Part shown: positions 4,159 to 59,462 of the stretch, one piece after another
Layout: the number at the start of each line of letters is the position of its first letter
Position numbering within the stretch: position 1 is the stretch's first letter
Origin: Chloroflexota bacterium
GTDB lineage: Bacteria > Chloroflexota > Anaerolineae > UBA2200
Length of the DNA stretch: 64,000 nt
NCBI GenBank assembly: GCA_014360755.1
Contig: JACIWX010000003.1
Location: 27,678 to 91,677, forward strand
Direction of reading: 5' to 3'
Position numbers and translations under genes: made by a program
Notes under the pieces: generated by a model
What the model saw: only the letters and a program-made list of their open reading frames with translations
Told to the model about the DNA's origin: nothing
Databases searched by the model: none

Positions 4159-4312
4159 GAGAGTGTTGAAAATCTTGTTACCCTGAGCAAAGCGAAGGTC
4201 TCGCGTAACTTTAGCCGTATTTTTCCAAGTACTGCGAGATGCTTCACTTCCCCTTCGCTTTGCTCAGCGCGAAGGTTCAGCATGACATTGGAAGGGCTTT
4301 TTCAACACCCTC
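4159..4312. mobile_element. MITE-like element copy A, about 154 bp. Its inverted ends are GAGAGTGTTGAAAAT and ATTTTTCAACACCCTC. A direct repeat acaccatt flanks it.
   Basis: A near-identical element with indels sits at 59239-59390. Both have the same inverted ends and an internal ctcgcgtaactttagccgtattttc...gcgagatgcttcac...cagcatgacattggaagggc core, and each is flanked by a short direct repeat. Confidence 0.55.
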
Positions 4313-8161: not shown

Positions 8162-9082
8162 ATGTTCCGTTATATTGTGCGTCGGTTACTGTGGATGATC
8201 CCGGTACTATTTTTCATCTCAGTAATCACGTTTTCCTTGGCACATGCTGTTCCTGGCGGGCCCTTTGACCGCGAAAAAGCATTGCCCGCTGAGATCATTG
8301 CCAACCTGAATAAATACTATGGACTGGATCAACCGGTGTGGAAACAGTATGTGAAATATATGAGCGATATCCTATTGCGCTTTGACTTTGGGCCGGTGTA
8401 CTCTTCGCGCAGCCGGAGGGTGAATGATATCTTCCGTGACCACCTGCCGATATCAGCGCAATTAGGAGTTCTTGCCATGCTTATTGCGCTGGGCATTGGA
8501 ATTCCTCTGGGCATTCTGGCAGCGCTGAAGCAGAATTCATTCTGGGACTATTTAGGCATGGCTGTGGCTATCTTTGGTGTCTCTGTGCCGGGCATTGTGC
8601 TTGGCCCATTGCTAATACTGATCTTTGCCCTCACGCTAAAGTGGTTCCCCGTAGCCGGTTGGGGCACACCTGCCAAAATGGTCCTGCCCTCTATCGCCTT
8701 GGGCATGCGCGAGTCCGCCATCATTGCACGTTTGACGCGAGCAAGCATGTTGCAGGTGATCCGCGAGGATTACATCCGCACGGCGCGAGCCAAAGGCTTG
8801 ACCGAACGTGCCGTTATGATCCGTCATGCGCTGAAAAATGCTTTCATTCCGGTGGCAACGATCCTCGGACCGATGTTTGCGGTATTGGTAACAGGCACGT
8901 TCGTGATCGAGCAGATCTTTGCCATCCCGGGGATGGGCAAGTATTTTATTACCAGTATTACCAATCGCGATTATCCAGTAGTGATGGGCACGATTTTGCT
9001 CTATGCTGTGTTTTTGGTTATTGCCAACTTAGCGGTAGACATTACGTATGCCTTCCTGGATCCGCGTATTCGGTACACGTGA
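8162..9082 (+). CDS. ABC transporter permease, DppB/OppB type
   Basis: Six transmembrane segments with the EAA-like loop (IRTARAKGL) typical of peptide/oligosaccharide BPD permeases. Confidence 0.9.
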   Translation: MFRYIVRRLLWMIPVLFFISVITFSLAHAVPGGPFDREKALPAEIIANLNKYYGLDQPVWKQYVKYMSDILLRFDFGPVYSSRSRRVNDIFRDHLPISAQLGVLAMLIALGIGIPLGILAALKQNSFWDYLGMAVAIFGVSVPGIVLGPLLILIFALTLKWFPVAGWGTPAKMVLPSIALGMRESAIIARLTRASMLQVIREDYIRTARAKGLTERAVMIRHALKNAFIPVATILGPMFAVLVTGTFVIEQIFAIPGMGKYFITSITNRDYPVVMGTILLYAVFLVIANLAVDITYAFLDPRIRYT

Positions 9083-9094
9083 GGTTATGAGGAT

Positions 9095-10150
9095 ATGGCA
9101 ACACAAGAATTGACCGCACAACAGAAAGCAGCCTTGCGCCTGAGCGAGCGGCAGGGCAAGCCAGCAAATCTGTGGTTAGATGCGTGGAACAGGCTGATAC
9201 GTAACCGAGCAGCAGTCCTGGGCGGGATCGTTGTGATCTTGTTGATCCTTACAGCCATCCTAGCCCCTGTCATTGCTCCCTACCATTATGCCAAAGGCGA
9301 CTCCGCCGAAGCCTATACCGTTCCCAATTGGTTGATTGGCCTGCTACCGGGGAACATCTCTGCCTATGCCAAGACAAGTTCCAAGTTCCTGCTGGGCTCT
9401 GACTACCTTGGGCGTGATATGCTCAGCCGGTTGATTTATGGCACGCGCGTCTCACTGCCTGTTGGGTTTATGGGGGCTTTTACAGCGCTGATCATTGGCT
9501 TGGTCTATGGCTGTATCTCAGGCTACTATGGCGGCAGGGTGGACAACATCATGATGCGCATCGTAGACATCATGTACGCTTTTCCCACGATGTTGCTGAT
9601 TATCCTGATGATGGCATTTTTCAAATCCACCTTTGCTAAAGTGGAACCTGGGACGGTAGCCTATACCTTCAACCAAGTGAACCGCGTTGTGGATCGCATC
9701 CTGGGCTTGCAAGGCGGCGGAATGCTGTTCATCTTCATGGGCATTGGCATCACCGCCTGGATGGGCATGGCACGGCTGGCGCGGGGGCAAATTTTGTCGC
9801 TGAAGGAGAAAGAGTTTATTGAAGCAGCGCACATGATCGGGGCGGGGGACATCCGCATCATTGTGCGCCACATCCTGCCCAATATCATTGGCCCATGCAT
9901 CGTAGCGGAGACGCTGGCTATCCCAGGCTATATCAACACAGAAGTCTTCCTCAGTTTCATTGGCCTAGGCGTGGACCCGCCAACGCCGAGCTGGGGAGCG
10001 ATGATTTCCGAAGGAGCGCAATCTATACGCTCTTATCCGCATATGGTGTTGTTCCCAGCCTTGGCCTTGTCGCTGACCATGTTCGCTTTCAATTTCCTGG
10101 GCGATGGCTTGCGCGACGCACTCGATCCTAAGATGAAGGGCACGAGTTAG
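9095..10150 (+). CDS. ABC transporter permease, DppC/OppC type
   Basis: N-terminal OppC-like extension with the C-type permease signature (EAAHMIGAG, PSWGAMISEG). Confidence 0.9.
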   Translation: MATQELTAQQKAALRLSERQGKPANLWLDAWNRLIRNRAAVLGGIVVILLILTAILAPVIAPYHYAKGDSAEAYTVPNWLIGLLPGNISAYAKTSSKFLLGSDYLGRDMLSRLIYGTRVSLPVGFMGAFTALIIGLVYGCISGYYGGRVDNIMMRIVDIMYAFPTMLLIILMMAFFKSTFAKVEPGTVAYTFNQVNRVVDRILGLQGGGMLFIFMGIGITAWMGMARLARGQILSLKEKEFIEAAHMIGAGDIRIIVRHILPNIIGPCIVAETLAIPGYINTEVFLSFIGLGVDPPTPSWGAMISEGAQSIRSYPHMVLFPALALSLTMFAFNFLGDGLRDALDPKMKGTS

Positions 10151-10278
10151 CACTCAGAATAATACCGTGGGAATGTCCAAGCATCGTCCTTAGCATCATT
10201 GGATTGGCAGCGGAGTAGCTTGACTGTCCCTCTATCCATGCGGAGCAGGGACAGATTCTTTTTGAATGTTAGGCAGGA

Positions 10279-11892
10279 ATGTCGAGGAATCACTGGCCCG
10301 TTTTGGTGCTTGTTCCCCTGCTGCTCTGTCTTGTGTTGGCTCTGTGTCTGGGCTGCGCAGCAGCGGGGTGGTTTTTGTACCGTTCTGTGTCGCGTTCTGG
10401 GGTAGTGCCCATTGTGCCTTCCACCGATGGCGGCACATTGCGTCTTTTTGGTAGTGAACCGCTAACGCTTGATCCAGCATTGGTTGTGGATGCGACCTCG
10501 GCAGAATACGTGGTGGAAATTTTCGGCGGGCTGGTGACATTGGATGAGAGACTCGACGTGGTGCCAGATCTAGCGGAACGCTGGGAGGTCAGCGAGGATG
10601 GCAGGACATACACGTTCTTTCTGCGCGAAGGAGCCAGGTTCCACGACGGACACCCTGTTACAGCTGCCGATTTCAAGTATTCGCTAGAACGTGCTTGTGA
10701 CCCGCGTACGGGCTCTACTGTGGCGGGAGTTTATCTCGGCGATATCGTGGGCGCCAAGGAAAAGCTGGAAGGAAAGGCAAACGAGATACGCGGCATTCAG
10801 GTTGTGGATGAGCGTACCCTGCGGATTACGATAGATGCCCCTAAGGCGTATTTCTTGGCGAAATTGACATATTCTACTGCCTTCGTGGTAGACCAAAGAA
10901 CGGCTGATCGGCCCGGTTGGCTTACACAACCGAACGGCACTGGCCCGTTCAAATTACAAGAATATAGCGGACAGCGCATTGTGCTGCAGCGCAATGAGTA
11001 TTATCATCGGGGCAAGCCCAAACTGGCAAAGGTGGTTTTTATTCTTTCCGGCGGCTCGCCGATGAGCATGTATGAAAATGGAGAACTGGACATTGTAGGT
11101 GTAGGTCCAGCAGACATTGAGCGCGTGCGCGATCCGAGCAATCCACTGCATGCGGAGTTGTCTGTTGTTCCACAATTGGATATACAATATTTGGCTTTCG
11201 ATGTGAGGCAAGCACCTTTTCAGGATGTGAGGGTTCGCCAGGCATTTTCCTTGGCTATTGACCGGCAGAAGATCTGCGACGTGGTGTGGAAGGGGATGAG
11301 AATGCCGGCGCAAGGCATCGTGCCTCCTGGCATGCCTGGCTATACGCGCGAGACATCCCTGGTGAGTTATGACCCGGAACGGGCGAGACAACTCATTGCT
11401 GAATCTGAATACGGGGGAGTAGATCGTTTGCCGCCGATAACGCTCAGCATCAGTGGGCGTGATGGGCAGCTTCCTCCGGTCATCGAGGCGATTGTGGCTA
11501 TGTACCGTGACAACCTAGGCATTGAAATCGCTGTGGAACAGACCGAGGACGTCCTGGCGGGAGAACCGCAGTTCTTTTCTCTAGGTTGGATTGCAGATTA
11601 TCCCGACCCCGAGGATTTTTTGGACATTCTCTTTCACAGTCAGAGCGGGCTGAACCATACCCATTACGCAAACCCGCAGGTGGATCGGCTTTTGGAAGAA
11701 GCGCGTGTGGAAAGCAACACACAGCGACGGATGCAGTTATACAAACAAGCAGAGGAAATGCTCGTGGCAGAAGCGCCATGGGTGCCATTGTGGCACAGTG
11801 TGGACTATATCCTGACCAAGCCCTATGTCAAAGGCGCGGCGTATGCAGCGGCCATTTACCCATGGCTAAGCACTGTGTACATAGAGCGATGA
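10279..11892 (+). CDS. ABC transporter substrate-binding protein, family 5 (peptide/nickel/oligosaccharide)
   Basis: N-terminal transmembrane/signal anchor followed by the SBP_bac_5 architecture (..VVPDLAERWEVSEDGRTYTFFLREGARFHDG..). Confidence 0.85.
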   Translation: MSRNHWPVLVLVPLLLCLVLALCLGCAAAGWFLYRSVSRSGVVPIVPSTDGGTLRLFGSEPLTLDPALVVDATSAEYVVEIFGGLVTLDERLDVVPDLAERWEVSEDGRTYTFFLREGARFHDGHPVTAADFKYSLERACDPRTGSTVAGVYLGDIVGAKEKLEGKANEIRGIQVVDERTLRITIDAPKAYFLAKLTYSTAFVVDQRTADRPGWLTQPNGTGPFKLQEYSGQRIVLQRNEYYHRGKPKLAKVVFILSGGSPMSMYENGELDIVGVGPADIERVRDPSNPLHAELSVVPQLDIQYLAFDVRQAPFQDVRVRQAFSLAIDRQKICDVVWKGMRMPAQGIVPPGMPGYTRETSLVSYDPERARQLIAESEYGGVDRLPPITLSISGRDGQLPPVIEAIVAMYRDNLGIEIAVEQTEDVLAGEPQFFSLGWIADYPDPEDFLDILFHSQSGLNHTHYANPQVDRLLEEARVESNTQRRMQLYKQAEEMLVAEAPWVPLWHSVDYILTKPYVKGAAYAAAIYPWLSTVYIER

Positions 11893-17280: not shown

Positions 17281-18312
17281 CTACACGCTTTTGTGTGCCA
17301 ATCCTACGCCGTCAATCGCGGCACCGCAATAAGGGCATTGGGAGTTCGGGAGGATGACGTTTTCCAGAATGTTGAAGCCAAAGCGGCGAATGAGCAATTT
17401 ATGGCAGTTGTAGCAGTAGGTGTTTTCGCCCTCGCTGCCAGGCACGTTTCCCTCATAGACATAACGCAGCCCAGCTTCCACGCCAATCTCACGCGCACGG
17501 TGTAGGGTGGATAGTGGCGTAGGAATAGCATTGCGCATCTCGTAGTCAGGGCGAAAGCGGCTGACATGCCAAGGCGTGTCCACCCCTACTTCTTCTGCGA
17601 TGAATTTCGCCAACTGGCGCAGTTCTTCTTCTGAGTCGTTCTGCCCGGGAACTACCAAGGTGGTGATCTCCACCCAGATTCCCCTCTTCTTCATCGCCTT
17701 GATGGCATCGAGCACCGGCTGCAAACGGGCACCGCAGATCTTGCGGTAAAAATCATCGCGGAAAGATTTCAAATCCACGTTCGCAGCATGGAGATGGGTT
17801 CCAAAGGCATCCAGCATCTCCTCGGTCATATAGCCATTGGTGACGTAAATGCTCTTGATGCCCCACTTTTCTGCCAGTACTGCCGTATCGTAGGCGTATT
17901 CGAAAAAGATGGTGGGTTCGGTATAGGTGTAAGCGATGCTCTTGCAGCCATAATGGCGCGCCGCAGCGGCAAGGTGATCGGGGGAAGCTTCGTGCCCGTC
18001 AATCTGGCCCCCATCGCGTACCACCTGCGAAATCTGCCAGTTCTGGCAGAAGGAGCAGCGGAAATTGCAACCCACGGTGGCAAAGGAAAACGTGGACGAC
18101 CCGGGATAAAAGTGGAAAAGCGGCTTTTTCTCCACGGGGTCAATGGCTTGAGAAATGGCCAAGCCGTACACTAGCGTATAGAGCACGCCATCCCTGTTCT
18201 CGCGTACCAGGCAGATCCCTCGTTTCCCATCCGCGATTGTGCAGCGATGAGCACATAAATGGCATTTTACCTTCTTGTCCTCTAGCCGCTCATAAAGCCG
18301 CGCTTCTCGCAT
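17281..18312 (-). CDS. AmmeMemoRadiSam system radical SAM enzyme (PFL-activase-like)
   Basis: CNFRCSFCQNW radical-SAM cysteine triad. The N-terminus (KCHLCAHRC, GICLVREN) and overall pattern match that family. The true start is probably MREARLY. Confidence 0.8.
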   Translation of the reverse strand: MREARLYERLEDKKVKCHLCAHRCTIADGKRGICLVRENRDGVLYTLVYGLAISQAIDPVEKKPLFHFYPGSSTFSFATVGCNFRCSFCQNWQISQVVRDGGQIDGHEASPDHLAAAARHYGCKSIAYTYTEPTIFFEYAYDTAVLAEKWGIKSIYVTNGYMTEEMLDAFGTHLHAANVDLKSFRDDFYRKICGARLQPVLDAIKAMKKRGIWVEITTLVVPGQNDSEEELRQLAKFIAEEVGVDTPWHVSRFRPDYEMRNAIPTPLSTLHRAREIGVEAGLRYVYEGNVPGSEGENTYCYNCHKLLIRRFGFNILENVILPNSQCPYCGAAIDGVGLAHKSV

Positions 18313-18839
18313 TATGACACCTCCTTTAAGCCTAGCGGATACCTCCGCGCCAGGTCCTGGTAGATGCTCTTGAAATTGGACCACTCTGCTTTATATTCTT
18401 CACTGACCTGTTTGTCCAACAACCTGGCTGGCACGCCCACGGCAATACAGCCATCCGGAACCTCCTGGCCCTGCCGGACGACTGCTCCTTCGCCGACCAC
18501 TGCCCATTCTCCGACCTGAGCCCAGTCGCTGACCACGGATCCCATACCAATTACCGCATGGTCTTTGATGGTCGCGTTGTGTATGACACAGCCATGGCCG
18601 ATAGTCACGTTCCTGCCGATGCGCGTAATCTCACCGGGGCGGGCGTGGATGACGCAATTATCCTCGATACTCGTGCCATCCCCGATGATAATCGTACCAT
18701 AGTCGCCACGCAGACGTGCGCCAGGTCCAATCCAACAATTAGCGCCAATGGTTACCGCACCGATGACATCAGCGGAAGGATGGATATAGGTGTCCTGCCC
18801 TAGTTCTGGTTTGCGTCCCTCGAATTCGTAGATGGCCAT
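18312..18839 (-). CDS. Gamma carbonic anhydrase family protein (hexapeptide-repeat, PaaY/CaiE-like)
   Basis: Left-handed beta-helix hexapeptide repeats with His ligands (IHPSADVIG..., CVIHARPG, IGHGCVIH). Confidence 0.8.
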   Translation of the reverse strand: MAIYEFEGRKPELGQDTYIHPSADVIGAVTIGANCWIGPGARLRGDYGTIIIGDGTSIEDNCVIHARPGEITRIGRNVTIGHGCVIHNATIKDHAVIGMGSVVSDWAQVGEWAVVGEGAVVRQGQEVPDGCIAVGVPARLLDKQVSEEYKAEWSNFKSIYQDLARRYPLGLKEVS

Positions 18840-19165
18840 TGCTCAATGCTCCTCTCGATGAATCCAATCTTTCGCCCCATTTTACTGCACGGCGGTGGGG
18901 GAAGCAAAAGGAGTGCGGAAGTATTGCTCCATGGTATTACAGAGGCTATTCCAAGTAGATTTAAAGGGAGATGTTGGGGGAAAGAGGGGAAGATCGAAGT
19001 TAGTGCCGAGGTCTGCTATTCATAGTCCGCCGAGTTACATGCATCCCAGAACCTTGGCGAATCGGCCTCTTGCACCTATATTGCACGTGCTTGCTGGTAC
19101 TTGCCTATCTTCGTGGGATAGTGCTCAGCGACAGCGCAGATAGCGTACGCAAGTCGGCTCAGGTT

Positions 19166-19410
19166 TGTCTTCTTGGCCGATACTGTATCACCTCCGCCAG
19201 GTGATGCGTCTTGATCTCCGCCGCACCCTCCAGGACTGCCCTGAGCCTGTCGAAGGGTCAGCGATAGTGCGCGCCAGCTTGAGGGCTTGTCCTGAGCAAA
19301 GCGAAGGGATGCGGTGAAAGGCCCGTGCGCTCATGCCCAGTTGCGTCATGACAGCGCGCAGCAAACTCTTGCCGGAGTCATCCAAGCGGCAGTATTCGCG
19401 TACTTCGGGT
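19166..19410 (-). pseudogene. Degenerate duplicate of the comM 3' end (about 245 bp), with two small repeat-unit insertions
   Basis: It aligns base for base to 19963-20175 (...cttcttggccgatactg...caggtgatgcgtcttgatctccgc...atgcggtgaaaggc...ctcatgcccagttgcgtcatg...cttgccggagtc...caagcggcagta.tcgcgtac). The fragment translates to [25 protein letters not shown]. Confidence 0.65.
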
Positions 19411-19411
19411 A

Positions 19412-19642
19412 TTACTCTTCCAACAGCTCCATCAATTCCTCTAGTGACAGCTCTGCATCACGTAAAATCTTGCGCAGCAAGCCGCGCCCAATATCCTGAC
19501 CTATATGAACAGGTACTGTCACTACTCGACCATCTGCGTGTTTGCGTCGAGCGTGGCTTCCCCGCTGCCGAGCAACTTTGAACCCAACTTTCTCCAGGAC
19601 TCGGAGCACCTGTCCTGCCTTCAGTACCGGAAGACGGGGCAT
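19412..19642 (-). CDS. hicA: Type II toxin HicA (YcfA family)
   Basis: KAGQVLRVLEKVGFKVARQRGSHARRKHADGRVVTVPVH matches the HicA signature (GSHxxxxHxDGRxxTVPxH). Confidence 0.8.
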   Translation of the reverse strand: MPRLPVLKAGQVLRVLEKVGFKVARQRGSHARRKHADGRVVTVPVHIGQDIGRGLLRKILRDAELSLEELMELLEE

Positions 19643-19878
19643 CAAATCAGCACCTTTTGCAGGCCAATGAACTCTGGCCACCCTTCGGTTTGGGGTTGTT
19701 CTTCCAGACACAGTTCGATCACTTCGCGGATGTTCTGCAACAATTCATCTATCGTTCGTCCTTGCGCATAACATCCGCGCAACTGGGGAACCTCTCCGAT
19801 AAAGAAACCATCCTCATCCTGTTCAATTAGGACATAAAACTCTCGTTTCATCAGGCTATCCTCCACTCTGCCAACCAT
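19642..19878 (-). CDS. hicB: Type II antitoxin HicB (UPF0150 family)
   Basis: YVLIEQDEDGFFIGEVPQLRGCYAQGRTIDELLQNIREVIELCLE has the HicB/UPF0150 fold pattern. Its stop overlaps the hicA start. Confidence 0.75.
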   Translation of the reverse strand: MVGRVEDSLMKREFYVLIEQDEDGFFIGEVPQLRGCYAQGRTIDELLQNIREVIELCLEEQPQTEGWPEFIGLQKVLI

Positions 19879-19957
19879 CTCTGCTTTTTCGACTGTCCTG
19901 ATGCTTGATTATAGTATAGGAAAGACATACAAGCCAAGAGCGCTGTGAAACTATGGA

Positions 19958-21502
19958 TCACATCTGCCTTCTTGGCCGATACTGGATTGCCTCTGCCAGG
20001 TGATGCGTCTTGATCTCCGCTGCACCCTCCAAATCGGCGATGGTGCGCGCCAGTTTGAGGATGCGGTGAAAGGCGCGGGCGCTCATGCCCAGTTGCGTCA
20101 TGGCGGCGCGCAGCAGGCTCTTGCCGGAGTCGTCCAAGCGGCAGTACTCGCGTACCTCCGCTGGGCCCATGTCGGCGTTGCAGAGGAGTGGCAAGTTGCC
20201 CTTGACTCCGCCCAGCCGACCGGCAAAGCGTTGGCGTTGGATTTCCCGCGCTTGCTCGATGCGGGCGCGGATAGTAGCGCTCGGTTCGCCCAGGCGGTCA
20301 TCGGTCAGTTTCTCGTACTCCACGCGTGGCACTTCGACGTGGATGTCAATGCGGTCCAAGAGCGGGCCAGAAATGCGCTTGCGGTAGCGGGTGATCATGC
20401 TTGGCGAGCAGGTGCACTCTTTGACCGGGTCACCGAAGTAGCCGCACGGACAGGGGTTCATCGCCGCCACCAGCATAAAGTTGGCTGGGAAGGTCAGCGT
20501 GGTTGTGGCGCGGCTGATGGTAACGATCTTGTCCTCCAACGGCTGGCGTAGCACCTCCAGCACGTGCTGGCTGAACTCGGGTAGCTCATCTAGGAAAAGC
20601 ACCCCGCGATGTGCTAATGAGATCTCACCTGGACGTGGCCAATGACCACCACCAACCAACCCGGCATGGCTGATGGTATGATGGGGTGCGCGGAAAGGAC
20701 GCTCGGTAATCAGCGGCTGGTCAGCGGGTAAAAGCCCGCTTACAGAATAAATCTTGGTGATTTCCAGTGCTTCTTCTACGGTTAGTTTAGGTAGAATAGA
20801 GGGCAAAGCCCGTGCCAGCAGTGTCTTGCCTGCGCCTGGGGGTCCAGTCATCAGCACGCAGTGGGCACCGGCAGCCGCTACTTCTAAGGCGCGCTTGACA
20901 TGCTCCTGGCCCTTGATGTCGCGAAAGTCAGTGCCATAGCGCGGCTGATCCAACAGGTCATAATCGAATGCAGAATGATAAGGCGGTATAGGGTGCAAGC
21001 CCTGCAGGTGCCCTACTAGCTCTGCCAAGTTGGACACTGGGATGATCTCTATGCCAGGCACCAGTGCAGCCTCTGGAGCATCCTCAGCCGGCACAAATGC
21101 CCTTTTGTAGCCCTGCGCCTGCGCTATGCTGATCATAGGCAATACGCCAGTGGTATGGCGCACGTTGCCGTCCAGCGAAAGTTCGCCAAGGAAAATGCTT
21201 GACTCTAAATCAGGCCAAATTTGCCCGGAGGCAGCAATGATGCCCACCGCGATAGGGAGGTCATAAGCGGGACCTTCTTTGCGCAAATCCGCCGGAGCCA
21301 GGTTCACCGTAATGCGCTGGCCAGGGAACCTACAGCCCGAGTTCTTAATCGCTGCGCGGACGCGCTCACGGGATTCCTGCACGGCAGTATCAGGCAAACC
21401 AACGATAATGAAACTGCTGAGGCCATGTGAGATGTCCACTTCCACTTGGATGGCTGCACCGTCCAGACCGACCACAGCGAAACTGGTTACTTTGGCAAGC
21501 AT
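19958..21502 (-). CDS. comM: YifB/ComM family Mg-chelatase-like AAA+ ATPase
   Basis: N-terminal Lon-protease-like domain, AAA+ Walker A GPPGAGKT and a C-terminal ChlI-C domain. Length is 514 aa. Confidence 0.9.
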
Positions 21503-49877: not shown

Positions 49878-49948
49878 CTGGGGCGGGAGGGTTCGAACCT
49901 CCGTTAACGGATCCAAAGTCCGCTGTGCTACCATTGCACCACGCCCCA
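49878..49948 (-). tRNA. tRNA-Gln (anticodon UUG)
   Basis: The reverse complement folds as a cloverleaf: acceptor TGGGGCG/CGCCCCA (U1-A72, typical of tRNA-Gln), D stem GTGC/GCAC, anticodon stem GCGGA/TCCGT with loop CTTTGGA, and T arm GGAGG-TTCGAAC-CCTCC. CCA is not encoded. Confidence 0.85.
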
Positions 49949-59238: not shown

Positions 59239-59390
59239 GAGAGTGTTGAAAATCTTGTCACCCTGAGCAAGCGAAGAGCCTGCCCTGAGTACAACGAAGG
59301 GGTCTCGCGTAACTTTAGCCGTATTTTCAAGTACCGCGAGATGCTTCACTCCGTTCAGCATGACATTGGAAGGGCTTTTTCAACACTCTC
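59239..59390. mobile_element. MITE-like element copy B, about 152 bp. Its inverted ends are GAGAGTGTTGAAAA and TTTTCAACACTCTC. A direct repeat cgcaag flanks it.
   Basis: Homologous to 4159-4312 over its full length, with indels in the CCTGAGC...CGAAGG sub-repeat region. Confidence 0.55.
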
Positions 59391-59462
59391 CGCAAGAGCG
59401 CTTTGCGTTTTCTCTCGAAGGGTGATATACTGGTCTATACTGAACGCAGGAGAAACAATCCC

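Follow-up and report, generated by a model that had tools for sequence, protein, structure and literature searches.

Why should the end of an intact gene be found twice, once in its proper place and once more on the far side of a toxin–antitoxin (TA) pair? The question is raised by comM (also known as yifB) in a 64,000-nucleotide stretch of a Chloroflexota metagenome-assembled genome (MAG) (GCA_014360755.1, contig JACIWX010000003.1, positions 27,678 to 91,677), which we refer to as the window and whose numbering we use throughout. A preliminary description of the window took the arrangement for a lone mini-island, the remnant of an element that had integrated site-specifically into the 3' end of comM and had kept the TA genes hicB and hicA. 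As we show, the locus is the shortest, one-cassette haplotype of a strain-variable, multi-cassette TA array in which pieces of the comM end (here comM') separate the cassettes. The features on which the argument turns are the following.

19958-21502, minus strand: comM (yifB), intact, encoding a Mg-chelatase-like AAA+ ATPase of 514 amino acids (Pfam ChlI, Mg_chelatase, and Mg_chelatase_C; 1.7e-97)
19955-20162, minus strand: proximal repeat P, comM codons ~448-514 and the stop codon, which form the functional 3' end of the gene
Between the comM stop codon and hicB, minus strand: leader of 106 nucleotides, carrying a putative promoter
19908-19937, minus strand: putative hicBA promoter, σ70-like, TTGGCT-18-TATAAT (promoter scan, 10 of 12 matches)
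19642-19851, minus strand: hicB, predicted antitoxin of 69 amino acids, short form (Pfam UPF0150, PF21748, and HicB_lk_antitox, PF15919, above the gathering score)
19412-19642, minus strand: hicA, predicted toxin of 76 amino acids (Pfam HicA_toxin, PF07927; 5.8e-19, 55 of 58 profile positions)
19156-19410, minus strand: distal repeat D, a comM' pseudo-copy (codons ~448 to the stop codon), frameshifted by two mini-insertions

The End of comM Is Duplicated around hicBA

A repeat search and pairwise alignment resolved P and D into three collinear, directly repeated blocks: 19156-19232 with 19955-20031 (77 nucleotides, 87% identity), 19258-19284 with 20034-20060 (27 nucleotides, 89%), and 19307-19406 with 20059-20158 (100 nucleotides, 91%). 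Overall, P and D exhibit 23 differences in 199 shared columns (88.4% identity), and the 2.5-kb region holds no second repeat of like length. The similarity is far above chance, and the recurrence of the comM end beside hicBA, as first described, is thus real. The homology in D begins 2-5 nucleotides past the hicA stop codon and ends at the comM stop codon, which is TGA in both copies. D is continuous with the native downstream DNA, and its tail together with that DNA is orthologous (90%) to positions 10211-11186 of a contig from a sister strain (L092, considered below). Of the changes between P and D, 19 are of the synonymous type, and no more than three codons are altered. The duplication is a true scar of recombination or insertion, in which the functional gene end is intact and the displaced copy is a pseudogene. 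Two insertions had been reported within D, each of ~25-35 base pairs; both are present, but they measure 24 and 23 nucleotides. In agreement with the earlier account, the ~545 nucleotides between the copies hold hicB, hicA, and the promoter-bearing leader, and no other gene.

The inferred product of comM is identical in sequence to MBC7232717.1, from a Chloroflexota MAG. The start of hicA overlaps the stop codon of hicB, so that hicB comes first in the operon with the promoter-like site upstream of it, and gene calls for hicB on public contigs agree with that for the window. HicA, whose toxin domain is of the dsRBD-like RNase type, has the GSH motif, visible in its translation as RGSHARRKH with the conserved histidine. 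The Pfam matches of HicB correspond to its N-terminal fold only, and no C-terminal DNA-binding domain of the ribbon-helix-helix or helix-turn-helix type was detected in it. Judged by sequence, the pair is a short-HicB, hicB-first variant of the type II TA system HicAB, with toxicity and neutralization predicted for its two products.

The Locus Belongs to a Strain-Variable Array

Close relatives of the window organism reveal what the single locus does not. Five Logan contigs from other samples have the arrangement of the window, and four contigs from a sister lineage (L092-L095), whose ComM is 98.4% identical and whose DNA is ~95% identical to that of the window, hold additional cassettes. In L092, L093, and L095 the order is comM, hicBA, C1, a RelB-like gene plus parE, C2, an 87-amino-acid open reading frame (ORF) plus a DUF2283 gene, C3, and finally the native downstream DNA that the window also has. 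C1, C2, and C3 are comM' copies: C1 begins at codon 449, C2 begins at codon ~353, and C3 consists of the last ~25 nucleotides of the gene. When L092 is aligned with the window, the stretch of ~55 nucleotides that holds the hicBA promoter is found again behind C2. In L094, by contrast, the ParE cassette is missing, and the order is comM, hicBA, a single hybrid copy, and the 87-amino-acid and DUF2283 pair. The hybrid copy is C1 until its last ~40 nucleotides and C2 thereafter, which is the product expected of recombination between C1 and C2. Yet another cassette is found on a 1.2-kb JGI contig (L097), on which an antitoxin gene plus a PemK/MazF gene is followed by comM' from codon ~403, a promoter, and a further small ORF. 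Cassette content varies between strains that are 95-99.9% identical. The mini-island is therefore not a solitary one, since sister strains hold further cassettes, each preceded by a comM' copy.

The preliminary description had envisaged comparison with an empty site, but none was found: all of the sampled close relatives (five window-type contigs, four sister-type contigs, and one relative of ~80% nucleotide identity) have hicBA and comM', and the 80 more distant genome loci, with ComM at most 73% identical, share no flank synteny. Exact-protein look-ups with ComM, HicA, and the downstream hexapeptide protein all gave the occupied arrangement. A scan of metagenome DNA for the insertion-bearing comM' copy had no hits beyond the sister strain and a single contig of 1.2 kb. 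That hicBA and comM' occur together in every sampled close relative indicates that the association is old. A universal arrangement had been put forward as the mark of an ancient, fixed duplication rather than an insertion; the arrangement is indeed old, yet hicBA is less diverged than its flanks, as would follow from recent exchange.

Recent Exchange of hicBA and Coding-Type Variation in the Copies

We compared divergence between the window and L092. For comM as a whole the proportion of synonymous differences (pS) was 0.183 and that of nonsynonymous differences (pN) was 0.008 (pN/pS = 0.04). The ~225 nucleotides of comM that precede the codons for Gln-Tyr-Arg (the QYR codons, CAGTATCGG), at positions 20210-19985, differed at 8-14 sites per 100 nucleotides, all of them synonymous. 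In the adjoining block, 19984-19399, which comprises the last 27 nucleotides of comM, the promoter, and hicBA, only 12 of 586 nucleotides differed (2%, against a background of ~5%). Within this block a single nucleotide of the 210 in hicB was changed and eight of the 231 in hicA (window 19412-19642, L092 8001-8231; pS = 0.033). Beyond it, at the head of D and C1, the sequences were diverged again (9 per 100 nucleotides). Because the block is less diverged than its flanks, the cassette is younger than its genomic background and has been exchanged recently, and its homology arms are mosaic.

The eight changes in hicA comprise six nonsynonymous and two synonymous ones (pN/pS about 1), a pattern that suggests relaxed or diversifying selection on the predicted toxin.

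Variation in the comM' copies is of the coding type. A count by codon position covered both window repeats (P and D) together with P, C1, and C2 from L092; of the 42 variable columns, 31 were third positions, despite frameshifts in D, C1, and C2. Each tail encodes a different yet plausible ComM C-terminus, namely PRRQM (P), PRRQT (D of the window), PRRQA (C1), and PRQHT (C2), and their arginine codons differ by multi-step synonymous changes. Variation of the coding type in dead copies implies that they are derived largely from functional comM ends, by crossover or gene conversion, rather than by neutral decay in place. Renewal of the copies from comM is further supported by a more distant relative (L098), in which the copy is cut off from comM by insertion sequence (IS) fragments and is heavily decayed.

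As to the edges of the repeats, the right end of every comM' copy is the comM stop codon, whereas the left ends fall at many places (codons ~309, 339, 346, 353, 357, 403, 414, 429, 448, 459, 483, and 505), with a cluster of starts near codons 339-357 in several lineages, and the repeats range in length from ~25 to ~480 nucleotides. The QYR codons mark three boundaries: there the low-divergence hicBA block has its left edge, C3 starts, and the hybrid copy of L094 has its junction.

comM Pieces Are Widespread behind comM

A search of protein collections with the ORF that spans D returned 43 clusters of ORFs of 50-115 amino acids consisting of Mg_chelatase_C alone. The context of one of these ORFs is an array in another Chloroflexota MAG (L111; GCA_964587435.1, CAZPNZ010000001.1, 1-13341), in which eight comM' copies lie on the same strand within 13 kb. 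Its cassettes hold a DUF2283 pair, a TumA/TumE-like pair, a DUF433/DUF5615 pair, a RelB-like/ParE pair, a 373-amino-acid ORF with a gene for an NYN-domain protein, and one large CBM-domain gene; cassette content differs among the related contigs L112-L116. The unit of L092 composed of C1, its promoter, and the RelB/ParE pair matches L111 at 9061-9897 (82.7% identity over 884 nucleotides), where it has other neighbors. Arrays of this kind would account for dozens of orphan Mg_chelatase_C mini-ORFs that gene callers report from metagenomes, and they would also be a reason why contigs may break at this locus.

Intermediate relatives (L098-L108, with ComM 85-92% identical to that of the window) show the same theme in varied form. 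L098 has comM, the IS fragments, hicB-hicA (81% DNA identity to the window), and the decayed comM'. In L101 comM is followed by a 277-amino-acid ORF and comM' from codon 449; L102-L105 have comM, a DinB_2 gene, and a comM' piece spanning codons ~309-374; in L099 there is a weak comM' remnant ~4 kb downstream of comM; and L106-L108 are without a comM' fragment. Throughout L099-L108 the upstream genes are kept in order (HAD hydrolase, Mur ligase, FTCD), whereas the downstream genes vary by lineage, and the same holds across eight lineages related to the window organism, in which upstream synteny is conserved and the downstream genes are lineage-specific. Of the 80 more distant loci, L012, L013, L030, L031, and L056 have comM fragments on the downstream side of the gene; in L013 two comM' pieces bracket an unrelated hicA-hicB pair, an independent recurrence of the arrangement. 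In all, comM' is found downstream of comM in at least nine independent lineages. Thus, the suggestion that the 3' side of comM is an integration hot spot is upheld for this clade, in which that side is variable and the upstream side is syntenic.

Two of these loci have features of their own. Immediately upstream of the decayed remnant in L099 (12630-12730) is a tandem repeat with a unit of ~32 nucleotides (GGGACGCAAGCAGCCCCGCCCGAAAGATGGCG, ~3 copies). In L031 (5608-8656), 3.2 kb past comM, there is a short fragment of the gene (codons ~357-390), and the intervening ORFs look, from their translations, like proA and proB; if that is what they are, housekeeping genes too can end up between comM and comM'.

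Recombinase Genes and Viral Contigs

No recombinase, phage, or conjugation gene was present in ~15 cargo segments from at least 10 lineages, the eight consecutive units of L111 included. Searches by tblastn with large serine recombinase and XerD probes, which are of limited sensitivity, found none in the window, and no hidden recombinase family emerged by homology among the cargo proteins of unknown function. One cargo protein, of 562 amino acids, was considered as a recombinase candidate and rejected; its CxxCH motifs mark it as a multihaem cytochrome. A cognate autonomous element with an integrase for the same attachment site was not encountered in ~115 fetched loci, in scans of viral contigs, or in the window. 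The viral-contig scans returned nothing with HicA and comM tail DNA, and with the ComM C-terminus they returned only prophage or satellite junctions from other lineages. We found no literature in which comM (yifB) is described as a site of the attB kind.

Among those junctions are two IMG/VR contigs of 52-53 kb (L086 and L087, 6070-8222), in which a gene for a large serine recombinase of 585 amino acids (Resolvase, Recombinase, and Zn_ribbon_recom domains) abuts the terminal piece of the viral contig, a comM fragment from codon 351 onward. The layout is suggestive, for another lineage, of a comM gene split by a prophage. On a third IMG/VR contig (L085, 1-5854), an ORF resembling a small terminase subunit, an HNH-like ORF, and a primase-polymerase/D5 gene abut comM' from codon 339, and an apparent RHS-core toxin fragment follows the comM' piece.

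How the Arrays May Grow and Shrink

The explanation toward which we lean, and which we judge probable by a modest measure, is that cassettes accrete and are lost by recombination within the comM-derived repeats and that TA addiction resists their deletion. The unit is a comM 3'-end segment, with a variable start codon and an end at the comM stop codon, joined to a small promoter-bearing TA operon, and such units stack head to tail behind an intact comM. A cassette could enter by a single crossover with a small circle or by an ordinary double crossover with a relative's DNA in which comM, cassette, and comM' are already present, and the product would be the same. In the double crossover, the left exchange would lie in the body of comM and the right one would join the donor comM' to the recipient comM end. 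By either route the cassette would come to lie upstream of existing ones, comM would remain intact, and its former end would be displaced downstream as a pseudo-copy. The double crossover would leave a hybrid pseudo-copy while keeping tail, stop codon, and downstream cassette together, which matches the conserved units of comM' tail, promoter, and TA pair. The enzymes responsible could be those of the host's homologous-recombination machinery or an unlinked site-specific recombinase. Recombination between direct repeats would also remove cassettes, as in L094. Since the direct repeats make all cassettes deletable, cargo that kills cells upon its loss would be the cargo that persists, and this fits the dominance of TA pairs. 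In the window, the predicted mRNA-cleaving toxin HicA and its antitoxin HicB would be expressed from their own promoter just past the comM stop codon. Of the elements of this account, the anatomy of the arrays, their variability among strains, the hybrid copy of L094, the coding-type mosaicism, and the recent sharing of hicBA are observed; the route of recombination, the part played by addiction, and the origin of the first duplication are inferred.

Several considerations weigh against this explanation. It still needs an illegitimate or site-specific event to have produced the first duplication. A comM' copy often begins 0-15 nucleotides past the stop codon of the preceding cargo, which homologous recombination alone does not predict. 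The clustering of boundaries at the QYR codons fits a site-specific core better than random homologous crossovers and, with three observations, is suggestive. In L111 a full-length comM is absent upstream of the array within the DNA that was fetched. Finally, all of the data come from metagenome assemblies, in which repeats can be misassembled; the same structures were seen in independent samples and sources.

Some of these very points would be accommodated by an integron-like or Xer/pdif-like cassette system, in which the comM repeats, or a core at the QYR codons, serve as sites for a recombinase encoded elsewhere. The arrays do consist of small, mostly two-gene cassettes separated by repeats that are ~90% similar; the repeats follow the cargo stop codons tightly, in the manner of attC; one short sequence is the meeting point of three boundaries; and the array of L111 is not adjacent to comM, with the same RelB/ParE unit found in different arrays. 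Against it, none of the arrays has an integrase beside it, the folding of the repeat does not surpass that of shuffled sequence (z-score = +0.51), so that an attC-like fold is lacking, R' and R'' cores are not apparent by eye, and there is no evident dif-like site. Moreover, the repeats vary in length from ~25 to ~480 nucleotides, the core is represented by only three boundaries, and coding-type variation is what exchange with a functional comM, not selection on a recombination site, would be expected to produce. We consider a system of this kind unlikely, though well worth keeping in mind. In its fullest form, it would be an integron-like system of Anaerolineae-type Chloroflexota in which an unlinked recombinase shuffles cassettes bearing comM pieces at the QYR codons, in arrays of at least eight units even away from comM; to this version we accord the same minor but appreciable likelihood. 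Yet less likely, in our estimation, is the origin proposed at the outset, namely that an integrase-bearing element (a prophage, an integrative and conjugative element, or an integrative and mobilizable element) entered the comM 3' end with a replacement end and lost all but hicBA. The direct repeat resembling attL and attR, the intact target gene, and the displaced pseudo-end are its textbook signature, comM serves as an attachment site elsewhere (the serine recombinase of L086 and L087 and the element of L085), and in several lineages the comM' starts gather around codons 339-357. But the starts as a whole are spread over codons 309-505 rather than confined to one core, hicA lies within 2-5 nucleotides of the copy with no remnant DNA between them, cassettes are swapped singly between strains, and ~15 cargo segments without an integrase, phage, or conjugation gene are difficult to reconcile with independent decay, which should leave visible intermediates. 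Thus, of site-specific integration at the 3' end, the scar, the intact gene, and the pseudo-end stand; the scattered starts speak against a single fixed crossover position, and the three boundaries at the QYR codons would fit one; and although it is correct that no integrase remains, only hicBA being present between the repeats, a decayed element is unlikely as a general explanation. Least credible of all is a purely local tandem duplication of the comM end and the DNA downstream of it, followed by divergence and involving no horizontally acquired DNA. Tandem duplications are common, and P with 55 nucleotides of promoter region has its homologue in C2 of L092 and the promoter behind it. However, the copies enclose TA cassettes of unrelated families, cassette content differs between strains 95-99.9% identical, the tails are separated by multi-step synonymous changes of the kind that distinguishes comM alleles, and hicBA is less diverged than its flanks. 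Strain comparisons largely refute this possibility, and we regard it as very improbable.

Other ideas were considered and set aside. A diversity-generating retroelement is contradicted by the predominance of third-position transitions, which are not adenine-specific, and by the absence of a reverse transcriptase. Variation of ComM from silent cassettes in the manner of pilS is contradicted by the almost entirely synonymous nature of the variation and by the finding that 118 of 120 full-length ComM homologues keep the spacing and have no insertion. For the distal copy, the fold score given above led us to reject a structured RNA or a site of the attC type, and the only Rfam match in the window is a tRNA.

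Comparison with Known Systems

Of the systems described so far, the closest comes from the same phylum. The ssrA islands of Dehalococcoides are arranged in tandem behind one gene, have direct repeats of its 3' end, and are variable in content among strains (McMurdie et al. 2011, PMC3146451). Fifteen of them have no integration module and were proposed to be cis-mobilizable elements (CIMEs), in keeping with the accretion concept of Pavlovic et al. 2004, cited therein; the ssrA islands share as their repeat a fixed core of 20 bp from a single position in ssrA, and many include a module with a CcrB-like serine recombinase (PMC3146451). The comM arrays (L092-L095, L097, and L111-L116) resemble these islands and CIMEs in consisting of repeat-bounded units that have no recombination genes and lie in tandem at one target. 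They are unlike the ssrA islands in that the target is protein-coding, the repeats are of 25-480 nucleotides with variable starts, no unit has a recombinase, and the units are of ~0.5-1 kb and are mostly TA pairs. The comM array is thus a new form of tandem accretion at a gene end.

An intact target gene with a displaced end is also seen at icd of Escherichia coli, into which e14 and phage 21 insert; these are single large elements that encode an integrase, supply a replacement 3' end, and use one fixed crossover site. As in those cases, comM is intact, its 3' pseudo-copy differs mainly at synonymous sites, and the homology extends to the stop codon; unlike them, the comM array is integrase-less and holds multiple cassettes. 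Sedentary chromosomal integrons are arrays of small cassettes that are rich in TA pairs, which are thought to stabilize the array, and similar repeats lie close to the cargo stop codons. The comM arrays share the small cassettes, the frequent TA pairs, and a repeat family close behind the cargo stop codon. They differ in that the cassettes have their own promoters, the repeats come from coding sequence, and an attC fold is lacking; intI and attI were not found at the head of the array, where the gene is comM, and no tyrosine recombinase is nearby. Minimal mobile elements of Neisseria are integrase-less cassettes exchanged by way of conserved flanking homology, without a duplicated gene end, and pdif modules of Acinetobacter are small, often carry TA pairs, and are moved by host recombinases at inverted 28-nucleotide XerC/D sites on plasmids. 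Like both, the comM arrays have small integrase-less cassettes, often of TA genes, that are exchanged between strains; a duplicated gene end sets them apart from the former, and from the latter they are distinguished in that no inverted 28-nucleotide XerC/D sites were seen.

The preliminary description had pointed to comM as a known island target in other bacteria. The islands in question, of the AbaR and AbGRI types, are in Acinetobacter; they have transposon backbones (Tn6019/Tn6022) with transposition genes and commonly disrupt comM (PMC7253598). They are mechanistically unrelated to the locus studied here, in which comM is intact and transposition genes are absent, and share with it only the name of the target gene.

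If our favored account of accretion and loss is correct, the end of a conserved housekeeping or competence gene serves in uncultured Chloroflexota as portable homology for tiny integrase-less cassettes, and the comM arrays would stand beside integrons and the tandem accretion of genomic islands as their low-tech equivalent. They offer a concrete case for testing TA addiction as a force that keeps repeat-flanked DNA from being deleted. Should an unlinked recombinase be responsible, it would represent a new cassette-capture system.

A Dispersed Mini-Repeat in the comM' Copies

The two insertions that frameshift D are as follows.

19284-19307, minus strand: mini-insertion 1, 24 nucleotides, CCTTCGCTTTGCTCAGGACAAGC followed by C, after the codons for HRI (the unit is 23 nucleotides in sister strains)
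19234-19256, minus strand: mini-insertion 2, 23 nucleotides, CCTTCGACAGGCTCAGGGCAGTC, after the codons for IAD

Both fit CCTTCG-N4-GCTCAGG-RCAAGC on the minus strand, and the motif CCTGAGC..CGAAGG noted earlier in the insertions is indeed in each of them. That motif has five matches in the window, against 0.16 expected: besides the two in D, the mini-repeat occurs at 4176-4198, 4252-4275, and 59278-59300. It is found as well in unrelated loci (L016 at 2052; L019 at 1717, 2593, and 12907; and L029 at 9960). In comM' copies it recurs at three positions, behind KSL, HRI, and IAD, in combinations that vary, and it is absent from the HRI and IAD sites in 118 of the 120 full-length ComM homologues, which are those that could be scored. 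At these two sites the sequence can be read as a 20-nucleotide insert flanked by a duplicated CCT (AT-CCT-[20]-CCT-CAAG and GA-CCT-[20]-CCT-GGAG). The mini-repeat is a dispersed repeat of Chloroflexota that is independent of the comM duplication and is not the result of simple decay. Descent of all pseudo-copies from one already interrupted ancestor was entertained and is weakened by the finding of other copies that carry the mini-repeat at one site only or at the third site.

Elsewhere in the window, the mini-repeat is contained in two elements of ~150 nucleotides (~4160-4312 and ~59241-59393) that resemble miniature inverted-repeat transposable elements and lie in apparently non-coding DNA. 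They have 14-nucleotide terminal inverted repeats (GAGAGTGTTGAAAA and TTTTCAACACYCTC), and the copies are ~95% identical, save for an extra 24-nucleotide unit at a different place in each. We found no match in the literature for the sequence of the mini-repeat or its translation. The mini-repeat (20 nucleotides plus CCT) may represent a class of very small mobile repeat not described before.

Other Features of the Window

Downstream of the array are the following.

18840-19155: native intergenic DNA, 316 nucleotides, from the array to the hexapeptide-repeat gene, collinear with L092 10229-10547 past the last cassette of that strain
18312-18839, minus strand: hexapeptide-repeat gene, the downstream neighbor of the array

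Farther along, inside a radical-SAM gene, the 200 nucleotides at 17396-17595 are 17% diverged from L092, against a background of ~5%, and may be a further recombination tract. Finally, we note that the tRNA gene detected with Rfam lies at 49878-49948 on the minus strand.

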